Shown here: one piece after another, positions 3,523 through 64,000 of the stretch
Position numbering within the stretch: the first letter of the stretch is position 1
How the letters are laid out: each line of letters starts with the position of its first letter
Source: Scenedesmus sp. PABB004
Lineage: Eukaryota
Assembly: GCA_014905635.1 (NCBI GenBank)
Contig: CM026548.1
Span: forward strand, 310,001-374,000
Length of the DNA stretch: 64,000 nucleotides
Reading direction: 5' to 3'
Made by a program: the position numbers and the translations under genes
Notes under the pieces: generated by a model
The model's input: the letters and a program-made list of their open reading frames with translations, nothing else
The model's database searches: none
What the model was told of the DNA's origin: nothing

Positions 3523-6500
3523 ATGGCGGAGGAGGTGCTGGCGGAGGAGGTGCTGGAGAACCAGATTTGGATCGGACTGAGCATGTGGTGAGCGCGCGGG
3601 AGCGGGTGCCAGTGGCCGCGGCGGCAGCAGCGGCCGCGGCAGTTCGCGCCCCCAGGCGCGCGCTGGGGCCCCGCCCGCGCCAGAGGCGTCCGCCGGGACA
3701 CGCGGCAGCGACCACGCACCGCCACGCGCGGCGGCAGCCCTCCGCGAGCGCGCGCTGCAACAGCGTCGGGCGGCGCGCCGCTGCCGAGCTGGCGCCGCTG
3801 AGCGCTCTCTGCCCGCCGGCGCGGCGCGCGCGCGCCGCCAGGCGCGAGGCCTTCGTGCTGCCCTTCATCCCGGGGACCGTGCCGGGCTGGTCGGACGCGT
3901 GCTTCGCGCCCGTGGCGTGGGACGGCGGCGGCGACGGCGACGCCGCGGCCGGCCCGCCGCGCGCGGACGGCGACGGCGGCTGGCGCGTGGTGTGCAGCCC
4001 CGCGACCGACGGCGAGGGCTGGGTGTACGGCACGGCCTTTGAGCACCTGCGCGAGGACCGGCCTGGCGGGCGCGCCAGCAAGCGCGCGAACGACCGCGTG
4101 CGCAGCCGGCTCTGGCGCCGCGCGACGGGCAGCGGCGCGCCGCGGCGGCGCAGCCAGGCGGTGCAGGTGCGGCGGCGGGGGCCGGCGGTGGGGGCCGGCG
4201 GCGCGCGGCGCAGCAGCCGCGAGGGGCGCGCTGACGCGCGGCGCGCGCTGCCGCGCCCGTCGCCGCGCCGCAGTCCGACGCGGGCGGCCTGGCGGCGGCG
4301 GCCGGCGCGGCGGCCGCCGCCGCGGCGGACGGCACGGCCGCCGCTGGCCGCGCCGCGCTCAAGGGCGCGGCGCGCGCGGCGCAGGCGGTGCAGGCGGCGA
4401 CGGCGGCGGGCGCGGCCAAGAAGGCGAGCCTGTCGGGGATGTGGGCGACGTTCAGCCGCCTGCTGCGCGACGCGGCGGCGCGGCACAACACGTCGATGAT
4501 CACGCCAGACATATCGGGCTGGTTCTTTGTGGTTGGCGGCCACGCGGAGGAGCTCAAGCGCCAGCAGCTCGCCCAGCTCGCGCACCTGGTGTGGTTCAGC
4601 GGCGAGCCGGCGCTGCGCGCCGCGATGGCGCCCGCCGGGCTCGGCGCCAACGCGCCGGGCGTGGCGCTGCCGGCGGCGCCCGCGCTCGCGGCGGCGCGCC
4701 GCGCGGCGGCGGCCGCGGCGGCCGCGGCTGAGGGCGGCCCGCGGAGCAGCAGCGGCAGCGACGACAGCGCGGGGCGCGGCGCGCTGGAGCAGCAGCGCGC
4801 GCTGGCGGGGCTGCCCTTCCACGGCGTGATGCTCACCCTTGGGGCCGACAGCGGCGCGCAGGCCGCGCGCGGCGGCGCCGCGGCGGCGAGCGCGCCCGAG
4901 CCCGCCGGCGCGGGCGGCGGCGCGGGCGCGGCGGGGCTGCGGCTGCACGTCGGCTCGCTGCAGATGCTGGAGGAGCTGCTCGCGGGCGCGCGCTACAGCC
5001 ACGCCGCGTACGGCTACGTCGCCGCGGCGGGGCACATGAGCAGCGTGGGCAACGCGCTGAAGCTGCTCGCCACGCTGCCCATCTTTGACGCCATCACGGG
5101 TGCGTGGGCGTGCGTGCGCGCGTGCGTGCGTGCGTGCGTGCATGCGTGAGTGCGTGCATGCGTGAGTGCCTGCGTGCCTGCGTGCCTGCGTTGTCGCCGC
5201 CGGCCGGTCGTCGACGAGTCGAGCGCCGCACGCCGCCGCCACGCGCCGCCGCGCGCCGACGCACGCCGCCGCCATGCGCCGCTGCGCGGCCGCGCGGCCG
5301 CGCAGGCGTGTCGCTGCAGGCCAACACGCAGGCGCTCATGAGCCTCGCGGGCTTTGAGGCGGACGACGTGCTGCTCACGAGCTGGACCAACGACACCTTC
5401 CGGCCCTGCCACTACGTCGCAATCGACCGCGCCCGCCGCTGCCTGGTGCGGCAGCGCCGCGCCCCACGTGCCCGCGCGCGCCCGCCCCGCGCGCGCCCGT
5501 CGGCGGGCGCGGCCGCCTCAGCGCGCCGCCGCGCCCGCGCCCGCGCCCGTGCCCGTCTCCAGGTCATCGCCGTGCGTGGCAGCCTCGAGATGGGGGACCT
5601 GGAGACGGACGTCACCGCCGCGCCGCTCGCGTACGAGCTGCAGGGCGTGTCGGGCTGGGTGCACGAGGGCCTGCTCGCCGCGGCGGCGTACGTCGTCGCC
5701 AACACCGTCGACGCGCTCGCCGAGGCCGCGGCGCGCGCGCCGGGGTGGCCGCTCGTCGTCGCGGGTGCGCGGCGGCGGCGGCAGCGGCGGCGGCGGAGCA
5801 GACCCCGCCCCGGAGCTCGCGCCCGCCAAGCCCGTCCGCGCCGCCACGCCTCGCAGGCCACAGCCTCGGCGGCGGCGTCGCGGCGCTCGTGACGCTGCTG
5901 CTGCAGCAGCCCGGCGCCGCGCCGCGCGGCGTCGGCGGCGTGCGCTGCGTGTGCGTGGGCCCCGCCGCGGTGCTGAGCCAGGAGCTCAACGCGCTGTGCG
6001 AGCAGTACATCACGAGCGTGGTGGTCGGCGCAGACGCCATCCCGCGCCTCAGGCGCGTGCACGGGGCAGGGTCGGGACGTGGGGCGCAGGGCGCCGGGCG
6101 CGGGCGTGCCGCGCCGCGCGCCGCGCGGGCCGGCGCCGCCGCCGGCCGGAGCCGCACACTGACTGACGCGCCCGCCCGCCGCCGCGGGCCGGCGCCGCTG
6201 CTCGCGCAGCACGTTCAGCGTCGAGTCGCTGCTGCTGGACCTGGTGAGCGCGTCCATCAGCCGCCGCGTGACGAGCCAGCTCGCGGCGACGACCAGCTCC
6301 GTCGCCGCGAGCACCGGCGCGGCGCTCAGCTCGCTGAGCCAGGGCCTCACGCGGCTCGCCAACACCGCGACCGGCAGCGTCACGAGCGCCGCCGGCGCGC
6401 TCGCGGGCAGCCTGGCGGGCGGCTACCTCGGCGGCAGCTTCACCGGCCTCGCCAGCATCGCCGGCCTCGCCGCGTCCGGCTCGCCGCGCGCGCTGCCGGC

Positions 6501-9692: not shown

Positions 9693-9759
9693 CGCGCCCG
9701 CGCCGCGGCAGCGCGGCGGCACGATCAAACGAATGAGCGGAGCTTTGGGGCGCCCAAAG

Positions 9760-9846: not shown

Positions 9847-12542
9847 TCACGCCTCCTCGGCAGCCTCGTTGTCCAGCCGCTTCAGCTCGGCCACCAGCTG
9901 CTGCACGCGCGCCACCTCCGCCGCCTGCGCTTCCATCTGGCGCCGCACGCTCGCCGCGACGTAGCGCCCCACGCCCGCGCCGCTGGGCGCGCCGCCGCCG
10001 CCGCCACCGCCGCCGGCCTCGCCGCCGCCGCCGCCGCCGCCGCCGGCCGCCGCCGCCGAGAACAGCTCCGGGCCGCCCGGCGCCGCGGGCGCGGCGCCGC
10101 CGCCGGCCGCCGCCGCCGCGAGCGGGTCGTAGGCGTCGCCCATGATGCTGCGCATGCCGGGCAGCACGTCGGCCTGCAGGCCGAGCGCCGCGCTCACGAG
10201 CGCGTCCGCCTCGCCCGCCGGCAGCAGCCCCGGCGTCGTCGCGACCTGCAGCAGCACCTGGGCCGCCTCGGTGAAGTGGTAACCCAGCAGCTGCCCCGCC
10301 TCCACCGCGCCGTAGCAGCGCGAGACGTTGGCCCACGCGGCGGCGCAGTAGCGCAGAACCCAGCGCGCCACGCGGCGCGCCGTCTCGGCCGCGCGCGCCT
10401 GCTGCGGCGCGAGCGCCGGCTCCGCCGGCGCCGGCGCCGTTGGCGGCGGTGCCGCGGGGTTGATCTGGAGCGGCGGGCGGCGGCGGCGGCGGCTAGGTCG
10501 GAGAGCGGTCCCATGCTTGCGTTTGACCCCTCCCACACACGCACACACACGCACACACACGCACAAACACCACCACCACGCCGCGTCGCGTGCGCACCTT
10601 GAACTGCATTGCGGCCTGCTCCAGAACGCCGCAGTGCAGCTCCACGCCGATCAGCAGCAGCCGCCAGCTCGCCCAGTGCCTGCGCGTGCCGCGCGCGCGT
10701 GCGCGGCGGGCCGGCTCTGCGCGTGCGCTCGGCACAGCGCGTGGCGCCTGCGCCCGCGCGCGCACGCGCGCACACACCTCGGCCCGAGCAGGCGAACCAC
10801 GCCCAGCAGCCGGTCGTGCAGCGCCGACGGCTCCCTGCGGGCGGGCGCGCGCGGCGGCGGTCGGCGACGCCCAGGCACCGCGGGCATGTGCGCGCTGAAG
10901 CGTCAGGCCCTTGCCCGGACACCTCGGCGCCCGCGGCGCGGGCCCCGCGCCCACCTGATGAGCGGCGCGGTGTCGAGCGAGTCGTCCAGCCGGCTGACCC
11001 AGGCCTCCATGTCGCCCTCGATCGTGGCATGCGACCGCGTGTAAAACCTGGGGCGCGGCGCCGCGGCGCGCCGCGTGGCCGGCGGCTCCGGACCGGGCGC
11101 GCGGCGGCAGCGGCGGCGGCGGCAGCGCGCGGCGCGGGCGCGAGGCATGAGCACGCGCGGCGCGCGCCTGCCCCAGAGCTCCGTCGTGTCGTTGGCGAAG
11201 GTCGCACCGCACACGTCGCAGGTCCACGGCGCGGCGTCGCCCGCGGCGAGCGCCGCCACGTCGCAGTAGATGTACCCACACTCGCCGCCGCCCGCCTCGC
11301 CGCCCGCCTCGCCGCCCGCCTCGCCGCCGCCCCCGGCCGCGGCCGGCGCCGCTGCCGGCTCGGGCAGCGCCACCTCCTCCTTCAGCAGCTTGTCGGCCGC
11401 CCGGAAGGGCCCCGAGCACGCGGGGCAGGGGATGCCGCGCGCGAGGTCGCGCTCGCGCGTGCACCTGCGGCGGCCGCGGCGGCCGGGGGCGGCGGCGCCA
11501 CGCGTGAGCGCGGCGGCGACGCGGTGGCGGGCCGGCCGGCCCGGCGGGCGGCAGCGCGCGGCCGTGGCCATGCGGCCGCCGCACCGGTCGCAGGTGCACT
11601 TGAACAGGAACTTGTCGGCAAGCAGGCGCTGCCGCGCGGGCGTAGACAGCAGGCGCTTGTGACCCGCGCCGAGGTAGTTTGTCGTCAGCAGCGTGCCGGC
11701 TGGGATGGCCGCGGTCGCAACGTGGTACCCCGCCGGCGCGGCGCCCGCGGCCGCGCCGGGCGGCAGGCCGCCGCTCGCGCTGCCGCCGGCGTCGGCGGCC
11801 ATGCCGTGCACGGGCGCGGCCGCGCCCGCGGACGTGCGGTAGGCCGTGTTGGGCGCGGCGCACACGTGCGTCAGCTTTGAGCCGTGCTCGAACAGCGCGG
11901 AGCCGAGGCGGAAGCTGTGGCCATTCGTCACCCAGGTCAGCCAGAGGCGGACGAGCAGGTCAAACGGGGACAGCGGCGGCTGCGCGTGCGCGCCCGGCGG
12001 CGAAAACGGCGCCGCCGTCGCGGCGCGCAGCTCCGGCGTCGGCGGGTGCTCCAGCAGTGTCGACGCGAACAGCCGCGCCTGGCGCACGACGGCCGCGTCG
12101 GCGAACGCGTCGGGGCAGGGGCAGCAGCAGCCCAGCACCGCCGCCTGCGCGGCGGGGTCGGCTGTGAAGAAGGCGAGGAGCTTGAGCACCACGCTCGGCG
12201 GGATGCCGTGCGCCTCGAAGTACGCCTGCAGCGGCTTGCAGAGCGGGTTGCTCGGCTTGAGCTGCGGGACGTGCAGCAGCGGCTGCTCGTGGACCACCAC
12301 GTCGCCTGCGCGCGTCGCGGCGGCGGGCGGCGGGGCGCGCTCGGCGGCAGCGGCGGCGGCGGCGGCGGCGGCGGCCGCCCGCCCGGCTCGCCCGCCGGCG
12401 CGCCGCGCTCGGCAGCAGCAGCAGCCGCCGCCCGCCCCGCTCGCCCCGGCGACGGACCTGGCGAGAACGCGCGCTCCGCTATGAGCACATTGCCCAGGCC
12501 ACTGCGCGCCTCCACACGCACGCTGCCAGGGCCTGGCTGCAT
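9847..12542 (-). CDS. SET-domain protein lysine methyltransferase, SMYD-like
   Basis: GLGNVLIAERAFSPGDVVVHEQPLL; FEHGSKLTHVCAAPN; AIPAGTLLTTNYL; post-SET FKCTCDRC; further CPAC..CDVC; helical C-terminus. Six introns, one GC-AG (11167-11048). Confidence 0.85.
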
Positions 12543-15136: not shown

Positions 15137-18100
15137 ATGCCCACGCCCGCGGCGGGCCGCGCGGGCGGCGGCGACCAGCAGCAGCGCACGCCCGGCTCGG
15201 GGCGCCACACGGCGGTCTCGCGCACGCCGACGGTGCGGCCGCCGCTGCTGTTCGCGCGCCTGGGGTCCTGGCAGCCGCCGTGGGCCAGCACCAGCACACT
15301 GGCTGCAGCGCCGCACACACCGCCCGCTGCCGCTGCTGCCGCTGCTGCCGCCGCAGTCGGCACTCACGCCCAACGACGATGCCGCGGAGCGCGCGAGCGC
15401 GCGCAAGCAGCGGTGAGGCGCCGCGCCAGCGCCGCGCCGGCGCCGCCCGCGCGCGCCGCGGACCCCCGCCGACCCCCGCCGACCCCCGCCGCGCGCAGGT
15501 GCGCGGGCGGGCTGCGCAAGTCGCTCGCCGGCGCGTTTGCCGGCGGCGGCGGCGACGGCGGGCCGACGCTCGCGCCCGAGGCGCTCGCGAGCATGTTTGA
15601 GCACTGCATCAAGCTCGCGGCAGAGAACAAGATCACCGACCGCAACGTGTGGCAGCTGGAGCTCATCCAGCACCTGCCCTCCATCGTGCGCAGCGGCCAG
15701 GTGCGGCGCGGCGCCGCGCGCGCCCCCCGCGCCGCGCCCGCCCCGCGCGCCGCGCCGCCGCGCTGCGGCGTCCGAGCCGTCGCGCCGCGCTGCATTGCCG
15801 CGCCGCGCCGCGCCGCGCCGCGTCAGGGCGCGCGCGGGGGGGTGCCGTTCAACTTCCAGAAGATGAGCGGCGGCCTGGACGCCGGCGTGACCATCTACTC
15901 CAAGCGCGTCGACCACACCTACAAGGAGGCCTTCCAGAGCCTGCAGGGCATGGGCGCCGCGGGGCGGGACGGTGCGCGGGGCAGCGAGGGCGGTGAAGGG
16001 AGGGGGAGGTGGCGGGTGGACAGGGATGGAGGGCCTGGGAGGCAGGCGGCAGGGCGCGGGCTGAGCCGCCGCGCCGGCGCCCCGCCGCGCAGACGAGGAG
16101 GAGGACGGCGACGGCGGCGACGGCGAGGGCAGCGACGGCGACGACGTCGACGACGCCACGGCGGCGGCGGCCAAGGCGGCCAAGGCCGAGCCGTCACGCG
16201 GCCGCGGCGCCAGGGGCGGCGGGGCTGGCGCGAGCGAGGAGGCGACGCTGGCCGCGCCCGAGGCGCTGCGCGCGAAGAAGGGCGACGCCACGTTTGGGGT
16301 TGACCCGCTCTTCCACAAGATGTCGGCCCTCTTTGACGAGGGCGGCGCCAAGGGTGCGGCCGTGCGCTGCGCGCGGCGCGCGGCGCTGCGCCACGCGCGC
16401 GCCCGCGGCGCCCGGCCGACCCGCCCCGCCGCCTGGGGCCGTCGTCTGACTGCTGCTGCCAGGCCTGCTGCTGCTCAACCGGAGCGTGTTTGACGGCGCG
16501 GCGATCATGACCGACCCCCGCGGCGTGCCAGAGGCGGCATTCCCCCTCGACCCGCAGCCCGCGCCCGACGCGCTCGTCGGGCTCACGCCGCTGCGCGGCG
16601 AGCTCGCGGCGTGCGCGCGCGCCGGCGGCGCCGCCGGCGCGGTCACCCCGGGCCTGGCGCAACTGCACGACCTGCTGCGCGCCGCGCTCGCGGCGGCGCC
16701 GCGCGGCCGGGATCAGGCGCAGGTGGCGGACGCGCGCGTGGACGTGTCGGCTGTGATGGCCGCCGCCACGCGTGAGTGCAGCGCACAGCGCCCCGGCGGG
16801 GCGGGCCGCGCCGCCCACGAGCGCGCGCTCTCACCCGCGCACGCGCATCGGCGCCCTGCCGCGCAGGGGGCCTCCCGCCAACGCCCATGCCCGAGCTGCG
16901 CAGCGGCGGCGCGCCGCCTGCGAAGCAGCCGGCTGCCCCGCCGGCGGCCGCCGCCGACGCCGGCGCGGCGCGCGAGGCTGCGCGCTCGGCGGCAGCGGCG
17001 CGGTCGTCGCCGCGTTCCTGGCCGAAGCGGCGGCGGCGGGCGACGCGGACGATGCCGCTGACGGCTGGGGTGGCGGCGAGCCGGCGGACGGCTCTGGGGA
17101 CGGCGAGGGCCACGCCGGCTACGGCGACGACGACAGCGACGACGGCGCCGCCGCCGACGCGCGCGGCGACGACGGCTGGGGCGCGCCGCGGCGCGAGCGC
17201 GGCGGCGCGTTTGGCGTGCTCGGCCTGGGCGGCGGCGCGGTGAGCGGGCGCGCGCCCCGCGCGACGCGCGGCCCGCGCGCGCACTCGCCGTGCCAGTGCG
17301 GCGCGCCGTGCCCGTCAACGCCCTCGCGCGGCTGCCGCCGCAGGGCCCCGACGGGGCGGCGGACGTGCTGGACGCCGACGCGCTGCAGCAGCTGCTCGGC
17401 GGCCAGGGCGGGGGCCGGCCCGGCGCCGCGCCGGGCGGCTGGGCGGGCAGCGCGTACTGGCGCTATCGCTCCGCCGCAGCCGCCATCGCGCGCCTGGGCG
17501 GCGGCGCGACCAAGGCCAAGTCGGCGGCCGGCGGCGCCGCGCGGGCGAGGTGGGCGGCGCCCGCGCGCGCGCCGGGCTGCTCGCCCCTGCTCGCACGTCG
17601 GGCTGCCCCGCCCCAACTCACGCGCCGGCGCCGCCGCGCGCCGCGGTGTGTGCAGGCCGTCGGCGCAGCGCATCGACTTTGAAAACCTGCAGGAGCTGCC
17701 GGCCGGCGCGCTCGCGCGCGGCAGCCGCAAACAGACCTGCCTCGTCACCGCGAGCGCGGGCAACACGCTGCTGCCGGTGGACCTGCGGTTCCAGGCGCGG
17801 CGCAGGCCCGGCGCTCGGCCGGCGCGCCCCGAGCCAGGGCGCAGCGCGTGCGCGGCCCGAGGTCGGTCAGGGCCGCACGCGCTCAGGGCCCGGCCCCGCG
17901 CCGCCCCGCAGGCGGCCAGCCTGGCGCAGCTGTCGCTCAAGCCCGCGCCGGTGGGCTTTGCGCGCGGCGCGGCCACCGGCGGCGCCGCCCCGGGCGCATG
18001 GGGCGGCGGCGACGACGCCGGCGCGAGCTGGGGCGACGGCTGCGAGAGCGACGGCAGCGACTGGGCGGCGACGGCGGCGACGGCTACAACGCCGGCGACC

Positions 18101-18662
18101 TCTCGCACGGCGACCCGGGCTTTGCCCCCGACGGCGGCCAGGCGGACGGCGGCGGCGGCGGCGCGCCGTCCGAGTGGTGGAGCCCCGAGCACGAGCTGCT
18201 CGCCGCGCCGAAGCGCACCGCGGGGCTGGGCGTGACCTACCAGCGCAGCGCCAAGCAGGCGCGGCGCCCCAGGGACCGGGCGCCGGGCGCGTCCGCGCCG
18301 CGCGTGCTCTGTCCACGCAACGCGCCGGCGCCGCCCCCGCGCCGCCGTGCCACCGCGCCGCCCAGGTCGACGTGCGCGCGCTGAAGGACCTGCTCTGGCA
18401 GAGCCTCGTCTCCGCCGACGCTGCCGACGCCGCGCGCGGGCGCGGCGGCGCGCCCGCCGACGCCGGCGCCGGCGGCGGCGTGCGGTTCCAGGACGTCGTG
18501 GCCGACGTGCCCGCGGTGAGCGCGGCGGGCCCCGTGGCCGACGTGAGCGTGCACATGTGCTTCATCTGCATGCTGCACCTCGCAAACGAGCGCGGCCTGG
18601 TCATCCGCGCCGCCGACGACCTGCGCACGCTGACCATCTCCAACGTGCCGGCGGGCCCGTGA
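15137..18662 (+). CDS. NCAPH: Condensin I kleisin subunit CAP-H (barren/Cnd2)
   Basis: NDDAAER; CIKLAAENKITDRNVWQLELI; NFQKMSGGLDAGVTIYSKRVD; VDPLFHKMSALFDEGGAKGLLL; AKQ|VDVRALK; CFICMLHLANERGL. Ten introns (GC-AG 17795-17911 and 18259-18365). Frame breaks near 17000 and 18064. Confidence 0.95.
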
Positions 18663-30478: not shown

Positions 30479-30509
<31 letters not shown>

Positions 30510-48909: not shown

Positions 48910-49614
48910 AGGGCTGCCTGGCGAGACAGGGCTGGGCCCGTGCAGCGCGCCGCCGCCGCTGTAGCTGCCGCCGCCGTGGCCGCCTGGCTGTGGCGAGGCC
49001 GCGTGCTGCGGCAGCACGAGCGCGTCCACCGTGCTGGCAGTGATGCTGATCTGCAGCAGCAGGTGGTCGGGGATGCTGCCGTGCTCCCTGCTGTCCTGCT
49101 GGCCGGCGGCGGCGGCCGCGGCGGCGGCCGCGGTGGCGGCCGCGGCGGCGGCCGCGCGCTGCGCGGCGTCCGCAGGGTGGTGCCGCTGGCGGTGCCGCGC
49201 CAGGTGCTCCTGCTGCTGCTGCTGCTGCTGCGCCAGCGTCAGCGCCGCCGGCCAGGCCGCGGCGCCGCGCGCGGGGGTCCCGCCGGCGCCGCGGCCGCGC
49301 CGTGCGCGGCCGCCTCCGCCACAGGCGCGCTGGCGGCGCTGGCGTCGAGGTGGTGCGCGAAGCTCGCCTCCGGGCCGGGCGCCTGCCCTGCGGCGGAGAC
49401 CGAGCCGTCGCCGCTCTCGGCGCCGTCGGCCGCGCCTGCGCTGCGCGGCCGCGGCTGGGACGGCGAGCCGCCGCCGGTCTCTGCCAGTGGCGTGACGGAC
49501 GTTGCAGACCCCATGATCGCGGAGCCGCTGTCGTCCGCCGCCGCGAGCATCTGCTGCGCCATCGATCGCTGCTGCGACGGCCGCGCCGACGCCTTGAGCG
49601 GCGCCTGCTGCTGC

Positions 49615-49671
<57 letters not shown>

Positions 49672-49713
49672 AGCGGCGGCGGCGGCGGCGGCAGCGCTGG
49701 CTCCTGCTGCTGG

Positions 49714-49746
<33 letters not shown>

Positions 49747-51958
49747 GGCGGCGGCGGCGGCGGCTCCGCCGCAGCGCGGCTAGCAGCGGCAGCGGCAGTG
49801 GCAGTGGCAGTGACAGCGGCTGCCGCCGCTGGGGCCGCCCCGCCACTGCCGGGCAGGCTCGCGGTGCTCACGGCACCGCTGACGGGGTCGGCCAGCGTGG
49901 TGGCTGAGCTCGACGCCGCCGCCGCTGCAGCCGCCGCCCAGGCGAGGCGCTCCCGCATGCGCGACAGCTCGCTCAGAATCTCCTGGAAGGACGGCCGGAT
50001 GCTCGCGTCGCTCTCCCAGCACCTGCGGCGCGGCGCGGCGCGGGACGGCGCGCGCCGTCAGCGCCGCGCCGCCGCCGCGGCCGGGCCCTGGCTGCCGCGT
50101 GACTTGCGTCCCCGCGCGCGCCGCCGCGCTGCGCCGCGCCTGCAGGCGAGCAGCTGGAAGTCAAAGGGACTGTTGTCCGGGAATTGCGGGCGACGCTGGC
50201 GGTACGCGACCTCGTGGCCCAGCAGCGCGCGGGGGACGCCCTTGAACGCGTGGCCGCCGGAGTAGAGCTCCCACAGGAGCACGCCAAACGCGTACACGTC
50301 GCTGCCGCGGCTGAGCTTGCCCTGCAGCATGACCTCCGGAGCCATGTGCGTCATCGTGCCCTGCGCGCGGCGGGAGCGCCAGGGAGCGCGCGGGCCGCTC
50401 AGCCGGCGGCCCGCGGCGCGCAGCCGCGCGTGCAGCGCGCCGCGGCGCCGCCGCGCACCTGGAACACGTTTGACACGTGCGTCGCGGCGGGGTCGATGCG
50501 CATGCTCAGCCCAAAGTCGGCGACCTTGGCCACAAAGGGCCGCCCCTCCGCGCCGCCGCTCGACTTGAGCAGGATGTTGCGCGCCTGCCGGGGCGGGCGG
50601 GCGCGCGCGCGGGCGACGGCGCGCGCTCGGCGGCGGGCGCGCGATCGGCGGCGGGCGCCCGCCGGCCCGGCCCGCGGCGCGGGGCGGCCCGTGGCGCCCA
50701 CGGCGCCCCGGGTCCCTCCCTCCCGCCCGCGCGCGTGCGCGTGCCTTGAGGTCGGAATGGATGATGTTTTCGCTGTGCAGGTGCACCATCGCGCGCGCGA
50801 CGTCCAGCGCGGTGTCCAGGATCAGCTGCATGTCCCGCCCCCCGTCTGCGCGCGGCGCGGCGGCGTGGGTCAGGGGCTCACGCTGCGGCTCACGGCTCAC
50901 GCAGCAGCCGGCCGGCGGCGCGCGGCGGCCGCGGCCGCGCACCCGGCAGCGTGAACGCGGTGCGGCTGTTGAGCAGCTGGCGCAGGCTCCCCTGGTCGCA
51001 GTACTCGAGCACGAGCTGCACCTCCCAGCTGTGCACGCTGTCGACGAGGCCCTCGTTGAGGAAGGCGGCGTTCATGGTGGAGTCGCCGACGCTGCTGCTG
51101 TCCAGCCTGCGCGGCGCGGCGGCGCGGCGGGGCGGTCGTCGGTCCGCGCCCGCGCCCGCCGCCGGCGCGGGGCGCGCGCGCCGCGCCGGCGCCGGCGGCG
51201 CGTGCCTGTGCGCCTCGCCGTCCGCGCCCGGCGTCGTGAGCGTCGCCTCGTGGCCGACCAGCACGGGGCGGAGGTAATAGGTGTACATCTGCACGATGTT
51301 GGGGTGGCTCAGCGACGCGCTGATCGCGGTCTCCATGATCGCCCTGCGCGGCACGCGGCACGCGGCGCGGCGGCGGGCGCGGCGGCGCGCGGTGAGCCGG
51401 GCGCGCGGCGTGATTCGCAGCGCGCGGCGAGCCGGGCGCGCGCCGCGCAAGAGCGCGGCGACGCGCGGCGCAAAGGGCGCGGCGCGGCGCGGCGCAAGCG
51501 CGGCGCGCGTGCGCACATCTTCTCGCGCTTCTCCTTGCCGCTCATGGCCGCGGGGAACATCATGGTCTTCACAGCGACCAGGGTGCCCTTCCAGTAGCCT
51601 GGCGGCGCGGCGCAGCGCGTGGCGCGCGTCGGGCGCGTGCGTGCACGAGCGCACAGCGCCCGCGCTGCGCGGCGGCGATGCCTCGCTCTGCCGCCCCGCC
51701 CGCGGGCACGCCGGCGCCACCGCGCGCCCACCTCTGAAGACCTTGCCAAACGTGCCCTCGCCAAGCACCGACTCGAGCACGAGCGCGTCGTGGCGCGCGA
51801 GGTCGCCCGCCGTCGTGCCGAGGCGCTTCCGCGCGTCCTCAAACACAGCCTGCTTGTGCTGCCCGCGCGCCTGCCCGCCGCCGCCGTCGGCGCCGCCGTC
51901 CTCCGTGATCGTCGTGGTGTTGCCGTCGGTCGCGCCGCCGTTGTACAGGCTCGTGTGC

Positions 51959-55420: not shown

Positions 55421-58400
55421 ATGCAGACAGCGGGCGCCATGCGCGCACGGTGCGCGGCGCCGCTGCCGCGCTGCCGCGCGCGCCGCTGCCCCCCACCGCC
55501 GCCCCGCCCACCGCCGCCCCCCGCCTGCCGACCGCTCGGCAGGGCGGCGGCGCCGCGCCGCCGCACCGCGGCGGGCGCCAGCAGCGGTGCGGCCGCGGCG
55601 CGGCCACACAGCGCTCGCTCGCCGGCGGTCCCCGCGGCGCCCCGCCTCACCCCGCCGCCGCCTCCCCGCAGCGCCGCCTCGCGGCACGAGCAGGGCGGTG
55701 GTCATGCGCCCGCTCGGCGAGCCCGCCGGCGCCGGCGCGCCGCCGCCGCCGACCAGCGCCGCGCCGCCCGGCAGCGACGGGCGCTTCGACGCCGGCAGCC
55801 GCAGCGCCGGCGCGCCGAGCACGAGCTACGGCGGCGGTGGCAGCGGCAGCAACGGCACGGGCACGGGGCTCGTGCTCGCGCGGCAGCCGGTCTCGGCGCT
55901 CGCGGCGGTGCAGACCGCGGCGGCGGGCGGCGCGAGCTCGCTGCGCTCGCGCGACCGCATCGCGGCGGCCATCGCGGAGAGCAGCCAGGTGGGGCGGCGG
56001 GGGCGGCCCGGGCAGGCGGGGGCGCGGGCGCGTGGGGTGGGTGCGGTTGTGCAACCGCAGCGCGCTCACGCGTCGCCCGCCGTCCCCCACTGCCGCCCGC
56101 CGCAGCGCGACTTCCTGGGTGAAGCGGACTACAAGTGGGCCCAGGTGCGCGCCCGGCGAGCACCGCCGCCGCCCGCCGCCGCGCCAGCCACGGCGCGGGC
56201 CCGCGCGCGGCCGCGCGCCCGCCGAACACCGCGGCCGCCGAACCGCAGGACTCGTACAACGTCACGCAGCGCAACGTCGACACCTGGGCGTTCTTTGTCG
56301 TCTTCCGGACCCGCCTCTGGCTGCTCGACCAGAAGTGGAGCTACGCCGGCGGCATGACCGGTGCGCCGCGCCGCGGCCGCACGGCCCGCCCGCCGCCGCG
56401 CCGGGGGCGCTGCGCGGCGCGCGGCCGCCGCGCGCGAGCACGCTGCCGCCGACCGCCGGCCGCCCCCCCCCCCCCCCCCGGCGCGCCCGCGCGCGCGTGC
56501 GCAGACGAGAAGCGCTCGGCGCGTGCGCGGGGCCTCGCCAAGTACCTGCTGGAGTCGATCCTGCAGCTCGGCCCGTGAGCGCGCGGCGCGGCGGCGCTCG
56601 GGGCGGCCGCGGCGGCCGCGGCGGCGCGTGGCGCCGCGCCAGCCCAGCCGCCGCGGTCGCGCGCCGCGCCGCGCCAGCCCAGCCGCCGCCGCCGCTGCTG
56701 CTGCCGCTCGCAGGACGTTCATCAAGGTCGGGCAGCTCTGCTCCACGCGCAGCGACCTCTTCCCGGCAGAGGCGCGCGCTGCCGCCGCCGCCGCCGCCGG
56801 CTCTGCCGCCGCCGCCAGCTCCGCCGGCTCCGCCTCGAGCGTGCACGCCGTCAGCGCACGCGCCGTCAGCGCGCCCACGCCGCGCCCCGCCGCCGCCGCC
56901 GCCCGCAGTTTGTGGAGGAGCTGGGCAAGCTGCAGGACCGCGTGCCCGCCTTCTCCGCGGACAAGGCCGAGGCGATCATCGAGGCAGACCTGGGCCAGCC
57001 CGTGGGCAAGGTCTGCGCGCCGCGCCGCGCCGCGCGCCCCGCCGCCGCCCGGGCGCGGCGCCGCAGCGCCGCCGACGCCGCCGCCGCCGCCGGCGCCGCC
57101 GCGCGCAGCTCTTTCGCTCGTTCGACCGCCGCCCGATCGCCGCGGCGAGCCTGGGGCAGGTGCACCGCGCGGTGCTGCACAGCGGCGAGGAGGTGGTGGT
57201 CAAGGTGCGCCGCCGCACCACCCGCCCCACGCGGCCCCTGCCGCGCAAACGCCGCCGCCGCACCCCTTGCCGCCCCTGCCCCGCAAACGCCGGCCGCGGC
57301 CCGCGCCCGCGCGCGGGGCGGCCTGGCGCGCCGCGCCGCCGCGGACCCCCGCCGCCGCGAACGGCCCGCGCCGCGCGTCGCCGCGCCCGCGTGCGCGCGC
57401 CGCGCGCAGGTGCAGCGCCCCGGCCTGGCCGCGCTGTTTGCCATCGACCTCAATAACCTGAGGATCCTCGCGGAGCAGCTCGACAAGGGGGACGACAACC
57501 GGGACTTCAAGGCACGGCCGCCGCCGCCGCACCTCCGCGCCGCCGCCGCTGCTCGAGCGCGTGTCGCCGGGGCGAGGGGCGCCCGCGCGCAGCAGCACGC
57601 GCCCGGTCGCGAGCCGCCGCCCGCCCGCCCGCCGCCCCCCCCCCCCCCGCCGTCCGCCGCGCGCGCCCTGCAGGGCATCTACCAAGAGTGCGCGACGGTG
57701 CTGTATGACGAGGTGCGCGCCGCGCCACCGCGCTGCCGGGCCGCGCCACCGCGCTGCCGGGCCGCGCACGCCGCGCCGCCCCCGCCGCGCGGCGCGGCGC
57801 CCGGCCGACAACGCGCCCCCCGCCGCCCGTCCCTGTGTGTCTGCCCGCCCGCTCCCTCCCTCCCTCCCTCCTCTCTCTCCCTCGTGCCAGATCGAGTACA
57901 TCAAGGAGGGCCGCAACGCCGACAAGTTCAGGCGCAACTTCAGGTCCGGGGCCGCTGGCGCGAGCCCTGCGAAGATGCATCATCATCGCCAAGGCCGTTG
58001 ACACGTGCCTGCACACGCACCCGCAGGGACACGCCCTGGGTGCGCACGCCGACGGTGCACTGGGCGTTCAGCTCGCCGCGCGTGCTCACGCTCGAGTACC
58101 TCCCGGGTGCGCGCCGCGCCGCCGCGCCGCCGCACCCGCCCGACCGCGCCGGCGCTGCGCCGGCGCTGCTCGTGTGATTTGCCTCCTGGCGCCGCGCCGC
58201 GCCGCGCCGCGCCGCGCCGCGCCGCGCCACGCCCGACCACGCCCGCCGGCCGCCCTCCGGCGCTGTCTTGTTCCGCCCCGCCCCGTGCCGCGCCGCGCCG
58301 CAGGCGTCAAGATCACCGACGCGGCGCGCCTGCAGGCGGCCGGCATCGCCACCGACCTCGTGGCGCGCCGCGCGACCGAGGCGTACCTCATGCAGGCACG

Positions 58401-60950
58401 GCGCCGCGCAGGAGGGGGGGGGGGCGCAGGCAGGGGGGCCAGGCCGGCACGGCGGCGGGGCGCGGCCGCGCAGGGGGGCGCCGGCGGCGCGCGGCCGCGC
58501 AGGGGGGCCGACGGGGCGCGGCGGCGGGGCACGGCGAGCTTCAGGCCCGCGACGAACGCTCGGCCCCGAAGCCCGCCGCGCCCCGCCGCGCGCCCCTGGC
58601 CTCCCGGCGGGCGGCAGCACGCCGGGCCGAGCCCGGGCAGCGCCCGAGCCCGGGCAGCGCCCGCGCCGCCCCGCCTGGCGCGCCGCCCCCCTCACTTCAC
58701 GCCTGCCCCACACACGCCCGCCCGCGCCGCCCACACACACAACAGGTGCTGCGCCACGGCTTCTTTCACGCGGGTGCGCGGCGTGCAGGGGGCAGGCACA
58801 CGCGCGGCGCCCCCGCGGCGCGCGTGCGCCGCGCCGCCCCTCACTGGGCTCGCGCCACCCGGCCCCGACGCGCCGCCGCCGCCGCGCGCCGCGCCCCGCC
58901 CCGCGCGCCGTCCGCCGCGCGCCGCGCGCCGCGCGCCGCGCGGCAGACCCGCACCCCGGCAACGTCTCGGTCGACGCTGCCGGCCGGCTGCTCTTCTACG
59001 GTGCGGCCCGACGCGCCGCCGCCCGCCCGCCCGCCCGCCCGCGCGCCCGCCCTGCCTCGATCTCCCCGCGCCGCCGCCGCCTCGCCGCGCCGACTCCCCT
59101 TACTCAACCCCGCCCTCGCTCGACCCTCAACCCCCTAAACCCCACCCTTCATTGAACTAAACCGCTGCCAGACTACGGCATGATGGGGACCATCCCCGGC
59201 AACGTGCGGGAGCGCCTGCTGGACGTCTTCTACGGCATCTACAAGTGCGGCGGGGCCCTGGTTTAGGGCAGGGTTTAGGGCAGAGTTTAGGGCAGGGTTG
59301 AGGGCAGGGTTGAGGGTTGAGGGCTCCTGGGGAGGTTGAGGTTGTGAGGGGACTCTGCACAGCGCCCGCGGCAGCAGCGCTTCGTGCTGCACCCTCGCGG
59401 CGCCCCACCCGCGCCCGCGCCGCGCGCGCCGCGCGCCGCGCGGCGCAGGAAGGACGCGGGCGGCGTCGTGCGCGCGCTGGTGGAGCTGGGCGTGATCACG
59501 CCGACGGGGGACATGCTGAGCGTGCGGCGGGCGATTGCCTACTTCATAGACAACATCACGCGCCAGACGGAGCGGCAGGAGACGATCGCGGTGCGTGTGC
59601 GCGTGTGCGTGTGGGGGGGGGAGGGGGGGGGGCAGAGGTTGGCTACGCCGGGGGAGGGGGGGGGCAGGGCGCTCCCTGCGCGAGCGAGCACCCTCGCACC
59701 CGCGGCGGCGCCTGGCGGGCGGGGGGCCGGCAGCGCGCGGCCCACGCGCCCCCGCGCCCCCGCGCCGCAGGCCATCGGGGAGGACCTCTTCGCCGTGGCG
59801 CTGGGTGCGCCACCGCGCGCCGGCGCGCCCGCCGCCCGAGCGCGCCCCTCCCTCTCGCCGCCGCGCCGCCGCGGCCCGGGGCGCCCACCCGCCGCCCGTC
59901 CGCCCGCCGCGGGGCCCCCGCGGCGCGCCGCGCAGACCAGCCGTTCCGCTTCCCCGCGACCTTTACGTTTGTGCTGCGCGCGTTCAGCACGCTCGAGGGC
60001 ATCGGCAAGACCCTAAACCCCGCCTACAACTTCAGCGAGGTGGGCACATGCGACATGGGGCCGGACACGGGGGCGGACACGGGGGCGGCCCCTGGCCTTC
60101 CCGCGGCGGCGCGCGCGAGCGGGCGGGCACCTGCGGCCCCGCCGCGCCGACGCGGCGCCGCCCGCGCGCGCGCCGCCGCCGCGCAGGTCGCCACGCCGTA
60201 CGCGCAGGAGCTGCTGGCGCTGCAGGTGCCCGGCGCCTTCGCCGCTGCGCCGCCGGGGCGGTCGCAGCAGCACGGCAGCCCGCGCGCGCGCGCCGCGTGC
60301 CTGCTGCCCTGCCCGCGCTGCTCGCGGCCCACGCCGTCGCCGCGCGCGTCCGCCGCGCCCGCGTCCGCTGCTTCCTTGCAGGAGGGCGGGCAGCAGGGGT
60401 TCATTATCGAGCAGCTGCAGCAGCAGGCGACCGAGGTCACGCAGGCCGCGGCGGCGATGCCGCTGCGCGTCGCGCGCATCGACTCCACGCTGGAGCAGCT
60501 CGAGACGGGCGACCTCAAGCTGCGCGTGCGCGTGCTCGAGGGCGAGCGCGCGGCGCGGCGCGCGGCGTGCTGCAGGTGCGCGCCGCCGCGCCCCTGCGCG
60601 CCGCGCCTGGGCGCGCCTCGCGAGCGCCGGCGGCTGCTCCCACTGCCCCACCTGCTGTCGCTGCGCGGCCCCCGCTCGCGGGCCCCCGGCCGCGCCCGCG
60701 GCGCACGCCGCTGACCGCGCCGCCGCCGCTGACCGCGCCGCCGCCCCCGCCCTGCGTCCAGGTCGCGACCATCAACACCGTCGCCACGGTGGGCCTGCTC
60801 AACGTCGGCACGCAGCTCGCGCTGCACGGCGGGCTCGAGGCCGGCGCGGGCGCGTGCTTTGCGCTCGCGGGCTTGTCGGCGGTGTTTGTCGCCCTCGGCT
60901 TCAAGCGCGTGCAGCGCCTGGACAAGTTTGAGAAGGAGATCCGCGGCTGA
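55421..60950 (+). CDS. ABC1K7: ABC1/UbiB atypical kinase, ABC1K7 (SIA1)-like, plastid
   Basis: LQLGPTFIKVGQLCSTRSDLFP, IAAASLGQVHRA, VVVKVQRPGL, GFFHADPHPGN, YDYGMMG, AIGEDLFAVALDQPFRFPATFTFVLRAFSTLEGIG, PYAQELL. Twenty-one introns, three GC-AG. Frame break near 60563. Confidence 0.92.
59260..59350 (+). repeat. Degenerate telomere-like minisatellite (GTTTAGGGCAGG / GTTGAGGG units) in an ABC1K7 intron
   Basis: About five 12-nt units containing TTTAGGG or TTGAGGG. Confidence 0.85.
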
Positions 60951-61657: not shown

Positions 61658-61703
61658 CGCCAACCTTGATGGCGCCGCCGGCGTCGGGCGCAGCCGCGCT
61701 GCC

Positions 61704-64000
61704 CTACAGCAGCATGCGGCGGCCGTTCGGGACCATGGGCTTGGACGCCATCATCTCCGGCTTGGCCATCATCGTCGTCGCGGCCATGGGCTTGGCCGCG
61801 GGCATGGCGGCCATCGCCGGCTTGGTCGTGGGCATGGGCATGGCGGGCTTGGTCGTGGGCATGGGCATGGCGGGCTTGGCGATGGCGGTCTTGGCCGCGC
61901 CCTTGGGCATCAGCACGCGGTCGATGATCTGGAACGTGGACTGGACGCGCGGGCGGGCCGGAGCGCCGCGAGGGAGGCAGGCAGGCGCAGGGCGAAGCGG
62001 GCGGAGCGCGGGTCGTTAGGCGGCGGCGCGGGCGCGCGCTTGGCGGGGAGTGGCGCTGCAAGCAGGGAGGGCGCGGGGAGCGCGGCACGGCAACCCGAGC
62101 GCACCTTGGAGATGAAGACGTTGGGCTGCATGATCGTCGCCTTGTTGCCGTTGGCGTCGGTCACGTACGCCACGCCGACGGCCATGCCGCTGCGCGCGTT
62201 CTTCTCGCCGCTGCGCGCGCGGGCGGGCGCGGAAGGGCGGCGGCGCGTGAGCGCGGGCGCGGGGCGCGTCGGGAGCGCGGCTGGGCGGTGGCGGCGGCGC
62301 CGCGCGGGCGCGGGCGGCGGCGCGCGCGCGCAGGCGCGGCGGCGCGGGCACGCAATCAGCGGCGGCGTGCGGGCGCGGACCTGGTGGCGAGGGTGATGGT
62401 GATGTCCTGGCCCTGCAGGGTCTTCAGCTTCTCGCCGGACGTCACGCCGCCGGGGATGATGCGCGCGCCGCGCACGACGTGGTACTTGAGCACATCTGCG
62501 GGGAGGGCGCAGAGGGCGGCGGGCACGGCGCGTGTTCGTCGGAGAGAGGGGGAGCCAGCGGCCGCGGCGCGCGCGGGCAGGGGCGAGGGCGGGGCGGCGG
62601 CGGCGGCGGCGGCGCGGCGCGGCGCGCACCGGCGATGTCGGCGGCGGGCGCATCGAGGGATATGCCGCTCGCCTTGAACGCGGCGTTGGTGGGCAGGAAC
62701 ACGGTGTCGGCGAAGCCCTTGGCGGTGATCGTGGCGGCCACGCCGGCCTTCTCGGTCGCCTTGAGCGCGGTGGAGAAGTAGCCGGGCAGGATCTTGGCCA
62801 TGGTCTTAAAGTTTGCCCAGTACGCGCCTGGCGCGTCCAGGGCAGGGGGAGGAGGCAGGGGCGAGCGGTTAGTGGAGGGTGGCGGGAGAGGAGTGAGGCC
62901 GGGCGGCGGCGGCGGCGGCGGCCGCGCGCGCGCGCCCTGGTGGGTGGGCGGGGCAGCACGCGCACGGCGCAGCACACGCAGCGCGGCCCGGCGTGGCCCG
63001 CGCACCCGACATGAGCACGCGGTCGATGACGTGCACGTTGTGGGAGCCGACCTTGGCGAGGTTGGCCTTGACCACGGTCGCGGTGTTCTTCTGGAAGTCC
63101 TCGACCATCACCTTGCCGTCGGGGCCCTCGGACAGGATAAGGTCCCACGGCGCGACCGCGGTCTTGGCGATGACGCGCTTGCTCTGCGCGCGTGCGTGTT
63201 GGCGGGTGCCGGCGGGTGAGCGAGGGAGCCGTGCTGCGGCGGCGCGGCGGCGCGAGGGCGGTGCGGGCGCGGGGCCCGGGCGCGCGAAGAGGGGGCGGGA
63301 GGCCGCGCGCCGGAGAACCCCAAAACGCTCGCCGCCCCGCGCGGTGCGGGGCCGCTCGGCGGCCGCCCCGCGCGGCGCGCGCCTTTGCGAACATCGCCTC
63401 CTTGGTGAGCGAGTCGCCGACGATGAGGTGGTAGCCCAGCACGGCCTTGCAGAGCGCCTCGTTGGCCTTGAGCTCGTCAATGGTGAGGCCCATCTCCTTC
63501 AGGAACGCGTCCATGGCCTGCGGCGCGGCGGGGACGCGAGCGCGGCGGCGGGGTGTGGCGCGCAGCCCTGCGGCGCAGTGCGTGGCGGCGCCGCCGCCCG
63601 CGCCCGCGCCGCTCACCGCGTTGGTGGGCGCCAGCACGGTCACGACCGCGTCGTCGGCGGCGAGGGCCTTTTCGGCGCCTGCGAACTCGGCGAGGTGCTT
63701 GAAGAGCGAGAGCTGGGCCTTGGTGATGTCGTCCATCGCGTTCTTGCCGTCCTGGGCCCTGGCCTGCGCAGAGGGACGACGTCGCGCGGCGTGGGCGCGG
63801 GCACGACCGGCGGAACGGCCGCGGCGAGGCGAGAGTGGCGTGGGAGCCGCGGCGAGCGGCGTGCATGGGCGGCAGCAGCGAGCGCCGGGTGCGAGCGCTG
63901 GATCACCGCGCGCGCGCAACGCAAAGAGCCGATCGCGTGGCAGGAAATGCATTGCAGCAGTGCAGGGCCCCCACCGTCGCGGCCAGGGCGAGCAGCCCGA
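61704..64000 (-). CDS. Secreted fasciclin protein with two FAS1 domains (5' end runs off window)
   Basis: Signal peptide end GLLALAAT|ARAQD (intron 63974-63764). Domain 1: TVLAPTNA, VLGYHLI, VHVIDRVL. Domain 2: TVFLPTNAAF, VLKYHVV, FQIIDRVLMP. Met/Pro/Lys-rich tail. One GC-AG intron (63382-63184). Confidence 0.92.

Follow-up and report, generated by a model that had tools for sequence, protein, structure and literature searches.

Frequent GC-AG introns in GC-rich algae are already known, having been published in 2011, when Iwata & Gotoh (PMC3033335) reported GC-AG shares of 39.6% in Aureococcus anophagefferens, 22.2% in Micromonas pusilla CCMP1545 and 7.7% in Chlorella sp., and found the U1 5' end of Aureococcus and Micromonas pusilla to be canonical. 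In Emiliania huxleyi, GC-AG accounted for 56% of 241 hand-mapped junctions, with GC and GT donors at about 60/40 (PMC4028052), and in the pelagophytes Aureococcus and Pelagomonas about 14-17% of introns were predicted to be GC-AG, against 0.32% in a lower-GC relative (bioRxiv 10.1101/2024.10.30.620910). All three sources name high GC content as the likely cause of the abundance, while GC-AG introns of the ordinary kind make up about 1.2% in plants and animals (PMC6310983).

Here we analysed a single 64-kb stretch of the genome of Scenedesmus sp. PABB004 (the window), whose G+C content of 79.3%, like the 78.5% tabulated for the genome (PMC12571836), lies above the ~65% that marks a GC-rich genome. 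The assembly may have small errors, as there is a probable 1-nt indel at ~60560-60575. In this window, 26 of about 126-136 introns (19-21%, a share that may differ genome-wide) are supported as real GC-AG introns, with junctions deduced from coding periodicity and homology; at this level of evidence, the frequent GC donors (about 20%) noted in a preliminary description of the same DNA are confirmed, and its caution that other GC-rich algae show elevated GC donor use is justified by PMC3033335 and PMC4028052. That description had named 27 donors. All 27 read G-C at intron +1/+2. Position +5 is G throughout and +4 is C in 25 (A at 24427, T at 36200), and an exonic AG at -2/-1 precedes 26 of the donors, the exception being 35219 on the minus strand (GG), which is also the one site refuted by homology. 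The acceptors of the 26 introns are AG, mostly (C/G)CAG. For 19 of the 26, removal of the intron restores a conserved reading frame across the junction, as judged from Pfam profile coordinates, orthologue alignments or PDB chain coordinates (in the following, ^ marks the splice junction, and paired numbers are the profile positions on its two sides):

19814..19975, minus strand: GC-AG intron of GSH1 (GCS2), splitting TIFPE^VRLK, donor GAG^GCACGCG; GCS2 coordinates continue at ~243/244
20596..20793, minus strand: GC-AG intron of GSH1, splitting CTIQ^VNLD; Pfam GCS2 129/130
20873..21008, minus strand: GC-AG intron of GSH1, CAG^GCACGCG; the originally described donor gives GCS2 ~102/104
21107..21248, minus strand: GC-AG intron of GSH1, CAG^GCGCGCG; GCS2 70/71 at the exon ends
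23617..23756, plus strand: GC-AG intron of the ABCF gene; abcF4 exon end at 23616, no gap against four homologues
23870..24034, plus strand: GC-AG intron of ABCF; used by abcF4
24427..24578, plus strand: GC-AG intron of ABCF, AAG^GCGAGCG (+4 A); used by abcF4, gap-free junction against Tetradesmus obliquus
36076..36200, minus strand: GC-AG intron of a NOC1/SWA2-like (CBF domain) gene, GAG^GCGTGTC with atypical +4 T; homology
36910..37059, minus strand: GC-AG intron of the NOC1/SWA2-like gene; no gaps against four homologues
39746..39897, minus strand: GC-AG intron of RMND1/DUF155; no gaps against three close orthologues, one transcriptome-derived
40194..40318, minus strand: GC-AG intron of RMND1; Pfam DUF155 94/95, no gaps against orthologues
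40388..40535, minus strand: GC-AG intron of RMND1; no gaps against orthologues, GT-only model gives unrelated sequence
40807..40905, minus strand: GC-AG intron of RMND1; no gaps against orthologues, GT-only model loses 6 residues
41259..41364, minus strand: GC-AG intron of RMND1, AAG^GCGCGCC; no gaps against orthologues, GT-only model loses ~50 residues
50023..50139, minus strand: GC-AG intron near the kinase-domain end of a large kinase gene; PDB chain 4uya_A coordinates
50585..50744, minus strand: GC-AG intron in the kinase catalytic loop, splitting HSDLK^ARN; Pfam PK_Tyr_Ser-Thr 129/130
56772..56908, plus strand: GC-AG intron of an ABC1/UbiB-type kinase gene, GAG^GCGCGCG; no gaps against five homologues, GT-only model inserts 23 residues
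57512..57673, plus strand: GC-AG intron of the ABC1 gene, AAG^GCACGGC; no gaps against five homologues, GT-only model reads through the intron
58396..58745, plus strand: GC-AG intron of the ABC1 gene, CAG^GCACGGC; no gaps against five homologues, GT-only model drops two exons

Pfam coordinates are contiguous over the junctions that split TIFPE^VRLK, CTIQ^VNLD and HSDLK^ARN, motifs that the preliminary description had singled out as invariant. In GSH1, 19975 has no in-phase GT alternative and the best GT model at 21248 is 7.8 nats worse, and at 50744 no GT lies within 20 nt. On 4uya_A, the codon at the 50139 junction corresponds to residue 268, with 267 matching the last complete residue before it, in the upstream exon, and 269 the first one after it, in the downstream exon. 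A protein search of the ABCF gene retrieved abcF4 [Scenedesmus sp. PABB004] (P0001) at 100% identity, and this public protein already uses all three GC donors of the gene. The GT alternative to 23617, at 23623, adds 2 residues present in none of four homologues, the GT-only model at 23870 inserts 23 residues missing from all four, and at 24427 it leads to an insertion and mismatches against Tetradesmus obliquus. The 36200 donor retains the residues VRE, as in T. obliquus and M. neglectum, and C. vulgaris and a plant also have a three-residue stretch there. At 37059 the GT-only model drops 29 conserved residues, while at 39897 it adds 8 and the Pfam DUF155 coordinates are concordant to within 1. 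For ABC1, all 35 homologues compared give the GT-only model the lower score, with a mean deficit of 90 bits.

The remaining seven introns are predicted from coding periodicity and from the phase consistency of a blind gene-model procedure (labelled DP, in dynamic-programming style), which puts a 3-nat penalty on GC donors and whose PWM rewards G at -1. The exon ends cited with them come from a splice-agnostic 7-state HMM that uses codon-position composition only and yielded 135 exon segments in the window:

6053..6209, plus strand: GC-AG intron of a Lipase_3-domain gene, CAG^GCGCGTG...GCGCAG^; DP choice
11048..11167, minus strand: GC-AG intron of a zinc-finger-like gene, CAG^GCGCGCG; DP, best in-phase GT model 7.2 nats worse
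17795..17911, plus strand: GC-AG intron of the condensin Cnd2 gene, CAG^GCGCGGC; HMM exon end at most 1 nt away, DP
18259..18365, plus strand: GC-AG intron of Cnd2, splitting AKQ^VDV; HMM exon end exact, no GT within 20 nt
30880..31024, plus strand: GC-AG intron of a gene without Pfam match; HMM exon end exact, no GT within 20 nt, DP
51107..51205, minus strand: GC-AG intron within a variable insert, in the large kinase gene that also has 50139 and 50744, CAG^GCACGCG; DP, no in-phase GT alternative
63184..63382, minus strand: GC-AG intron of a fasciclin-domain gene, AAG^GCGCGCG; DP, GT alternative 63392 (GTTCGCA) a poor consensus fit

The Pfam Lipase_3 match stops exactly at the exon end before 6053 (profile position 135 of 140), and a GT that would keep the phase, at 6071 (GTCGGGA), is a weak match to the donor consensus. 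At 17795 the acceptor is uncertain (17911 or 18057); the best competing model with an in-phase GT falls short by 8.0 nats and relies on a poor motif. The exon downstream of 18259 aligns to yeast Brn1 from VDVR on and to positions 664-763 of Pfam Cnd2, and the upstream exon, searched on its own, gave no match. At 30880 the best GT model trails by 10.4 nats.

Across the window, DP called 138 introns (99 GT and 39 GC) and retrieved 24 of the 27 described GC sites. When GC was permitted as donor, 39 alternative-donor introns arose, 25 of them after an exonic AG, with a gain of 281 nats, whereas seven decoy dinucleotides yielded 9-32 such introns, 0-5 after AG, with gains of 23-148 nats. The AG^GC class thus stands far above background; the 14-15 GC calls that do not follow AG do not. 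DP made 15 GC calls beyond the described sites, all but one after exon ends other than AG, and on the strength of this control they were set aside as background. Among them, 20975 (the DP choice in GSH1, with which both exons cover GCS2 profile positions 97-112), 35217 and 60553 are clearly contradicted by homology, as are, with less certainty, 35853 and 34551; the other ten may include some GC donors that lack an exonic AG. The DP choice of a GT at 36209 in place of 36200 was likewise rejected, as it loses the VRE residues. A GC donor at 35217 or 35219 (minus strand; the latter was the least sure of the preliminary description) deletes 11 residues that are identical to those of T. obliquus, at a place where C. 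vulgaris and a plant have residues too; a GT model restores them, with a Pfam CBF gap of ~9 positions concordant:

35081..35201, minus strand: GT-AG intron, CGG^GTGCGGC, replacing the claimed 35219; homology

The curated set of 26 GC and 100 GT donors (98 GT introns for phase) shows that GC donors are under tighter constraint than GT donors. An exonic AG precedes 26/26 GC but 37/100 GT donors (P = 1e-9), in keeping with the described tolerance of GT donors for other exon ends; put differently, 26 of the 63 AG-ended exons take GC donors, and none of the 63 other exons does. This rule may be partly circular, in that GC donors might have been taken only after AG in the preliminary description and the PWM favours G at -1. 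G at +5 is found in 26/26 GC against 91/100 GT donors, C at +4 in 24/26 against 62/100 and A at +3 in 6/26 against 1/100 (P = 3e-4), with +3 being G or A in all 26 GC donors. Phase 1 is absent from the GC introns (0/26) but occurs in 23/98 GT introns (P = 0.004). In ordinary plant and animal GC-AG introns, too, the other donor positions are closer to consensus. The rest of the GC donor matches the U2-type consensus of the species and offsets the lost +2 pair: Watson-Crick pairs to the canonical U1 5' end (consensus per PMC3033335, assumed for Scenedesmus sp. PABB004) average 5.04 for GC and 5.06 for GT donors. None of the 26 resembles a U12-type donor, (A/G)TATCC (ATATCC in PMC3033335), as all read GC(G/A)(C/A/T)G.

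We consider it likely that these are ordinary U2-type GC-AG introns, made common (about one fifth here) by GC-biased substitution in a nuclear genome of ~79% G+C. Mutation bias and/or biased gene conversion would drive T to C at +2 (C/(C+T) is 0.85 in intron interiors), and the C might be kept only where the remaining 5' splice site pairs adequately with a normal U1 5' end, namely where the exon ends in AG (often CAG), where +5 is G and where +3 is A more frequently. Since third codon positions are ~97% G/C, an exon before a phase-1 intron can hardly have A at -2, and GC donors would therefore be confined to phases 0 and 2; judging by the counts, their share would be capped near the fraction of AG-ended exons. 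The GCRCGS consensus, described as distinct, is probably for the most part the species' GT consensus GTGCG(C/G) with its T changed to C, giving GC(G/A)CG(C/G); what stands of the distinction is the extra A at +3.

The preliminary description had instead proposed relaxed or rewired 5' splice-site recognition. On such a reading, changes in the U1 5' end, in the sequence or modification of the U6 ACAGAGA box, or in U1C, LUC7 or PRP8 would make +2 C and +4 C intrinsically acceptable. C at +4, unpaired with canonical U1, in 62/100 GT and 24/26 GC donors would suit this proposal, as would a GC use some 10-20 times the 1.2-1.3% of plants and of 61 eukaryotes (PMC6310983, PMC3033335) and the suggestion of base modifications or U1 snRNP proteins made for Aureococcus and M. 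pusilla in PMC3033335. Yet GC donors occur only with the full exonic AG and +5 G (26/26), so that they are stricter than GT donors, not more relaxed, the equal pair counts are what an unchanged U1 predicts, and the U1 5' end of Aureococcus and M. pusilla is the unchanged consensus (PMC3033335). The proposal is thus not supported by our data, and we regard it as improbable. The 64-kb window has no Rfam match and no snRNA gene.

It is more doubtful still that the GC donors are a gene-modelling artefact of 79% GC DNA, with true donors at nearby GTs or with coding sequence taken for introns. DP does accept 9-32 false alternative donors in the decoy control, 35219 and several extra DP calls were wrong, and in-phase GT alternatives lie at most 18 nt from 6053, 23617, 36200 and 63382. 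Against this, homology fixes 19 junctions at or near residue resolution, where by sequence comparison an artefact is already refuted, with the nearby GT explicitly worse at 23617 and 36200; the public abcF4 protein uses three GC donors; and the motif is enriched at exon ends called independently of any splice model. On both strands of the window AG^GC(G/A)CG has 89 copies, 14 of which fall, on the correct strand, at most 2 nt from the 3' end of an HMM exon, where 0.47 were expected (P ~7e-17), and for many of the HMM exon ends near AG^GCRCG, as for many of the sites, the nearest GT is more than 20 nt away. Base errors in the assembly, with a true T shown as C at +2, seem the least credible source: the probable indel speaks for such errors, but random T-to-C changes would not cluster at +2, after exonic AG and with extra +3 A, and GC-AG introns of the GC-rich E. 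huxleyi were confirmed by RT-PCR and Sanger sequencing (PMC4028052).

The GC-AG introns of Scenedesmus share with those of the algae of Iwata & Gotoh, two of the three being green algae as well, a very high nuclear G+C, an AG acceptor and, as counted in our window, a frequency some ten times the usual 1-2%. Scenedesmus belongs to another class (Chlorophyceae, Sphaeropleales), a canonical U1 is assumed for it but was checked in Aureococcus and M. pusilla, and its GC content is more extreme (78.5%) with a share that, counted in one 64-kb window, is not higher (~20%). As this share does not exceed the 22% of Micromonas pusilla at 66% GC, GC content alone does not seem to set the level, and PMC3033335 concurs. 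With E. huxleyi they have in common high GC as the probable cause and junctions that GT-biased ab initio models mispredict; E. huxleyi, however, is a haptophyte in which GC is the majority donor, a minority in our window, and its junctions have EST and RT-PCR support, whereas ours are deduced from sequence. The pelagophytes show a similar share, likewise ascribed to genome GC content, but are stramenopiles with few introns per gene, while the Scenedesmus genes in the window have up to 20 each. The GC-AG introns of plants and animals, finally, are also U2-type with an AG acceptor, but they are about 15-20 times less frequent than those of the window, and the compensating consensus in Scenedesmus is GC-rich (GCGCG or GCACG) rather than GCAAGT.

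The GC content of the PABB004 genome lies near the upper limit for eukaryotes, and the window reaches 79.3% G+C over 64 kb with zero N. Three-base periodicity is very strong in the window, and ~97% of coding third codon positions are G/C. Owing to the rarity of stop codons (119,774 of ~128,000 six-frame codons, ~94%, sit in open frames of at least 50 codons), ORF lists are useless here and exons have to be defined by periodicity together with homology. An Rfam scan of the whole window at the gathering threshold gave 0 matches. According to the table in PMC12571836, the genome (GCA_014905635.1) has 39.8 Mb, 78.5% GC and 7,092 genes; the strain is named Scenedesmus glucoliberatum PABB004, and its genome paper is J Appl Microbiol 132:2004 (2022), doi 10.1111/jam.15311.

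The preliminary description had listed 27 introns with GC donors, and the sequence does read GC at intron positions +1/+2 at 27/27 of them; the flanks are also as described, with exonic AG at 26/27 (35219 on the reverse strand has GG), G at +5 in 27/27 and C at +4 in 25/27. Since strings of the form AG/GC[GA]CG (the slash marks the exon end) are common in DNA of 79% GC, with 89 copies on both strands of the window, exon ends were defined first without a splice model, using a coding HMM that was trained on the window and has 7 states (three codon positions for either strand and one non-coding state). This model gave 135 exon segments in the window, with an exon end no more than 2 nt from the claimed donor at 16/27 sites, many of which have no GT within 20 nt. 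Among the motif copies, 14/89 lie no more than 2 nt from a same-strand HMM exon 3' end, against 0.47 expected (P ~7e-17). The antisense of the coding strand is partly coding-like here, and the HMM misassigned the exon at 20797-20876 of GSH1, a GCS2-family gene, to the wrong strand.

Gene structures were also parsed by dynamic programming (DP), scored by coding log-odds and by weight matrices for both splice sites, derived from 48 high-confidence GT introns, with +2 unscored and GC donors permitted at a penalty of 3 nats. Run blind, the DP called 138 introns (99 GT and 39 GC) and recovered 24/27 claimed donors, the misses being 21008, 35219 and 36200. Permitting GC gave 39 alternative-donor introns, 25 with exonic AG, and improved on the GT-only parse by 281 nats, whereas the decoys GG, GA, CC, CG, CT, AC and TC gave 9-32 introns, 0-5 after AG, and gains of 23-148 nats. 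The AG/GC class is thus far above background, and the remaining GC calls of the DP, being at background level, were not counted. These calls beyond the claimed sites number 15: 20975, 35217 and 60553 are contradicted by homology, 35853 and 34551 appear to be no intron at all, 13072, 14545 and 16770 each lie a few nt from a good GT donor, and 7132, 8249, 9122, 17394, 17960, 49586 and 49006 were left out of the counts.

Homology across the junctions was followed gene by gene, through Pfam scans of single exons, each lengthened by 10 codons at either side, and through alignment of joined gene models, in GC and GT-only versions, to homologues. The GC donors fall as follows.

21248, 21008, 20793 and 19975, reverse strand: GSH1 (GCS2 family); Pfam coordinates continuous at 70/71, ~102/104, 129/130 and ~243/244
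23617, 23870 and 24427, forward strand: ABCF gene; exon ends of the public protein at 23616, 23869/70 and 24426, four homologues gapless
41364, 40905, 40535, 40318 and 39897, reverse strand: RMND1/DUF155 gene; gapless at 5/5 in three close orthologues, 1/3 transcriptome-derived
37059 and 36200, reverse strand: NOC1/SWA2-like gene; four homologues
50744 and 50139, reverse strand: large kinase gene; Pfam 129/130, PDB 4uya_A 267/268/269
56772, 57512 and 58396, forward strand: ABC1 kinase gene; five homologues gapless
6053, 17795, 18259 and 30880, forward strand, and 11167, 51205 and 63382, reverse strand: sites placed only by periodicity, consistent phase and fit to the donor consensus

In 6 genes, GT-only models drop or scramble conserved stretches of the protein. 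For ABCF, the GT-only model adds 2, 23 and 2 residues found in none of the homologues compared (Tetradesmus, Raphidocelis and two bacteria); the exon search returned a 100% identical public protein, abcF4 [Scenedesmus sp. PABB004], and through this protein the public annotation already includes three or more of the GC donors. The GT-only RMND1 model results in deletions, insertions or unrelated sequence, and that of the ABC1 kinase scores lower against 35/35 homologues, with a mean deficit of 90 bits. In the NOC1/SWA2-like gene, 37059 is confirmed by 29 conserved residues that the GT-only model loses, and 36200 is superior to the nearby GT chosen by the DP, as it retains three residues common to T. 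obliquus and M. neglectum; C. vulgaris and plant homologues also have a three-residue stretch at this junction position. The 50744 intron interrupts the kinase catalytic loop, and the junction codon at 50139 falls between 4uya_A residues 267 and 269, to which the two flanking exons map. In GSH1, the DP donor 20975 would make two exons span the same profile positions, and 21008 is therefore correct. The GC donor at 35219 was rejected, as a GT intron from 35201 to 35080 regains 11 residues identical to T. obliquus. Per-exon PDB searches were uninformative for 51205 and for the exon upstream of 18259. Altogether, homology validates 19 GC sites and refutes 1, and the remaining 7 are those of the last list entry. 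In the genes with homology-tied junctions, which include a methionine gamma-lyase gene, 19/68 junctions are GC, in a subset that is biased because it was the presence of claimed sites that led to the selection of most of these genes; over the whole window, with junctions taken from periodicity and homology, the share is 26 of ~126-136 introns, in line with the ~20% originally proposed. Frequent GC donors are confirmed in the window at the level of sequence.

Several observations on these and neighbouring genes are recorded here. No identical protein was found in the search with the RMND1 exon 41365-41577 (reverse strand; top match 56% identity) or with the NOC1/SWA2-like exon 37060-37443 (reverse strand; top match 64% identity), and both genes may be absent from, or modelled differently in, the public annotation of 7,092 genes; the RMND1 alignment matched at least 55 metagenome loci at 29-47% identity, with no close relative among the matches listed. 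In the ABC1 kinase at 60540-60580 (forward strand), ~8 residues of the homologues appear only after a one-base frame shift, just before a good CAG/GTGCGCG donor at 60576, and the DP spanned this break with the false GC intron at 60553; a 1-nt assembly indel in a G/C run at ~60560-60575 is the probable cause, the alternative being a real frameshift. In the Cnd2 gene (forward strand), coding periodicity stops at ~17407 within 17388-17430, where neither an AG/GC motif nor, within 20 nt, a GT is present, and the DP pick 17394 (GCTCGGC) fits the consensus poorly; at 16765-16780, a textbook-looking CGC/GTGAGTG donor (16772) does not share the phase of the DP acceptor, the DP took GC two bases upstream instead, and a small frame problem or a different acceptor may be involved. 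The zinc-finger-like gene at 9847-11802 (reverse strand) has three 120-nt phase-2 introns, with donors at 11584, 11167 and 10954. That these are paralogous copies differing at +2 was rejected, since 67% mean column identity at ~80% GC is no real similarity, and their equal length looks coincidental. Microsatellites of (GT)n lie directly 3' of exon ends at ~10540-10580 (reverse strand) and 30474-30500 (forward strand) and supply many alternative GT donors at these two introns. In the large kinase gene, long poly-glutamine and poly-alanine coding runs lie 3' of the kinase domain at 49000-49750 (reverse strand), where the DP called putative GC donors at 49586 and 49006.

With 35219 removed, the curated set of 26 GC and 100 GT donors compares as follows.

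Exonic AG at -2/-1: GC 26/26 (ten further non-AG GC calls of the DP left out), GT 37/100, P = 1e-9
C at -3: GC 18/26, GT 50/100
A at +3: GC 6/26, GT 1/100, P = 3e-4
C at +4: GC 24/26, GT 62/100
G at +5: GC 26/26, GT 91/100
Phase 1: GC 0/26, GT 23/98, P = 0.004
Phase 0: GC 20/26, GT 47/98, P = 0.014

GT donors, as had been noted, tolerate other exon ends. GC is used at 26/63 (41%) of AG-ended exons versus 0/63 of all other exon ends, a rule possibly inflated by site picking, through both the preliminary choice of sites and the matrices. Codon bias accounts for the absence of GC donors from phase 1: the -2 base of such introns occupies a third codon position, and A makes up ~1% there.

Given these features, the GC donor site is under tighter constraint than the GT site rather than relaxed. 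The preliminary description had seen in it a distinct consensus and a sign of rewired 5' splice-site recognition. The pattern itself is real, and its consensus is mostly the species' GTGCG(C/G) in which C replaces T, together with the extra A at +3. A rewired spliceosome behind the GC donors is not supported, since they keep the exonic AG and the G at +5, and have equal Watson-Crick pairing to U1, counted against the U1 5' consensus quoted in PMC3033335 (mean pairs: GC 5.04, GT 5.06; with wobble included, GC has slightly fewer, 5.81 vs 6.31). The counts made in the window need no such rewiring, nor do they indicate a novel mode of splicing. Instead, the pattern is as predicted by unchanged U1-based recognition, with the U1 5' end assumed canonical here, in which loss of the +2 pair would be tolerated only with all other U1 pairs present.

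In intron interiors, C/(C+T) is 0.85, as compared to 41% C at +2 after AG, and selection thus still favours T at +2 even after AG; at non-AG exon ends, with 0/63 GC, T at +2 is absolutely favoured. Here we speculate, with a confidence that falls somewhat short of even, that GC-donor use has reached a mutation-selection ceiling whose height depends on both U1 pairing and codon bias. With such a ceiling, a T-to-C change at +2 would be nearly neutral given an AG-ended exon (41% already GC) and lethal without exonic AG (0/63), and phase-1 introns would never be eligible, third codon positions being ~97% G/C. If true, the species would represent a natural titration of minimal 5' splice-site complementarity, and it would be explained why the GC-AG share does not climb further with GC content, the origin of abundant GC-AG introns having been termed an enigma in PMC3033335.

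Gene finders restricted to GT-AG would mis-model about 1/5 of introns in this alga, and probably in GC-rich relatives too. Raphidocelis subcapitata has 71.5% GC, and Tetradesmus obliquus 57%. Two details may be new, namely the strict requirement of GC donors for exonic AG and, as its consequence, their absence from phase 1, and together they would offer a simple, testable account of the limit on GC-AG use. No report of GC-AG use in Scenedesmus or any Sphaeropleales was found in the literature searched, most subscription journals being outside its coverage. For Monoraphidium neglectum, a GC-rich sphaeroplealean, the supplementary table of PMC6310983 puts the major non-canonical introns at just 19 out of 67,746, and our guess is that this low figure is a product of GT-only gene prediction. 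The same source gives a plant mean of 1.2% GC-AG. Raised GC-donor use in other GC-rich algae, as the preliminary description had noted, is already published: Iwata & Gotoh 2011 (PMC3033335) gives GC-AG shares of 39.6% for Aureococcus, 22.2% for Micromonas pusilla and 7.7% for Chlorella sp. and describes a canonical U1 5' end in Aureococcus, M. pusilla and the reference strain Micromonas RCC299, PMC4028052 gives 56-60% GC donors for E. huxleyi, part of them RT-PCR-confirmed, and bioRxiv 10.1101/2024.10.30.620910 gives ~14-17% GC-AG for pelagophytes. This alga, richer in GC than any green alga examined before it, extends the series that links genomic GC content to GC-AG use.
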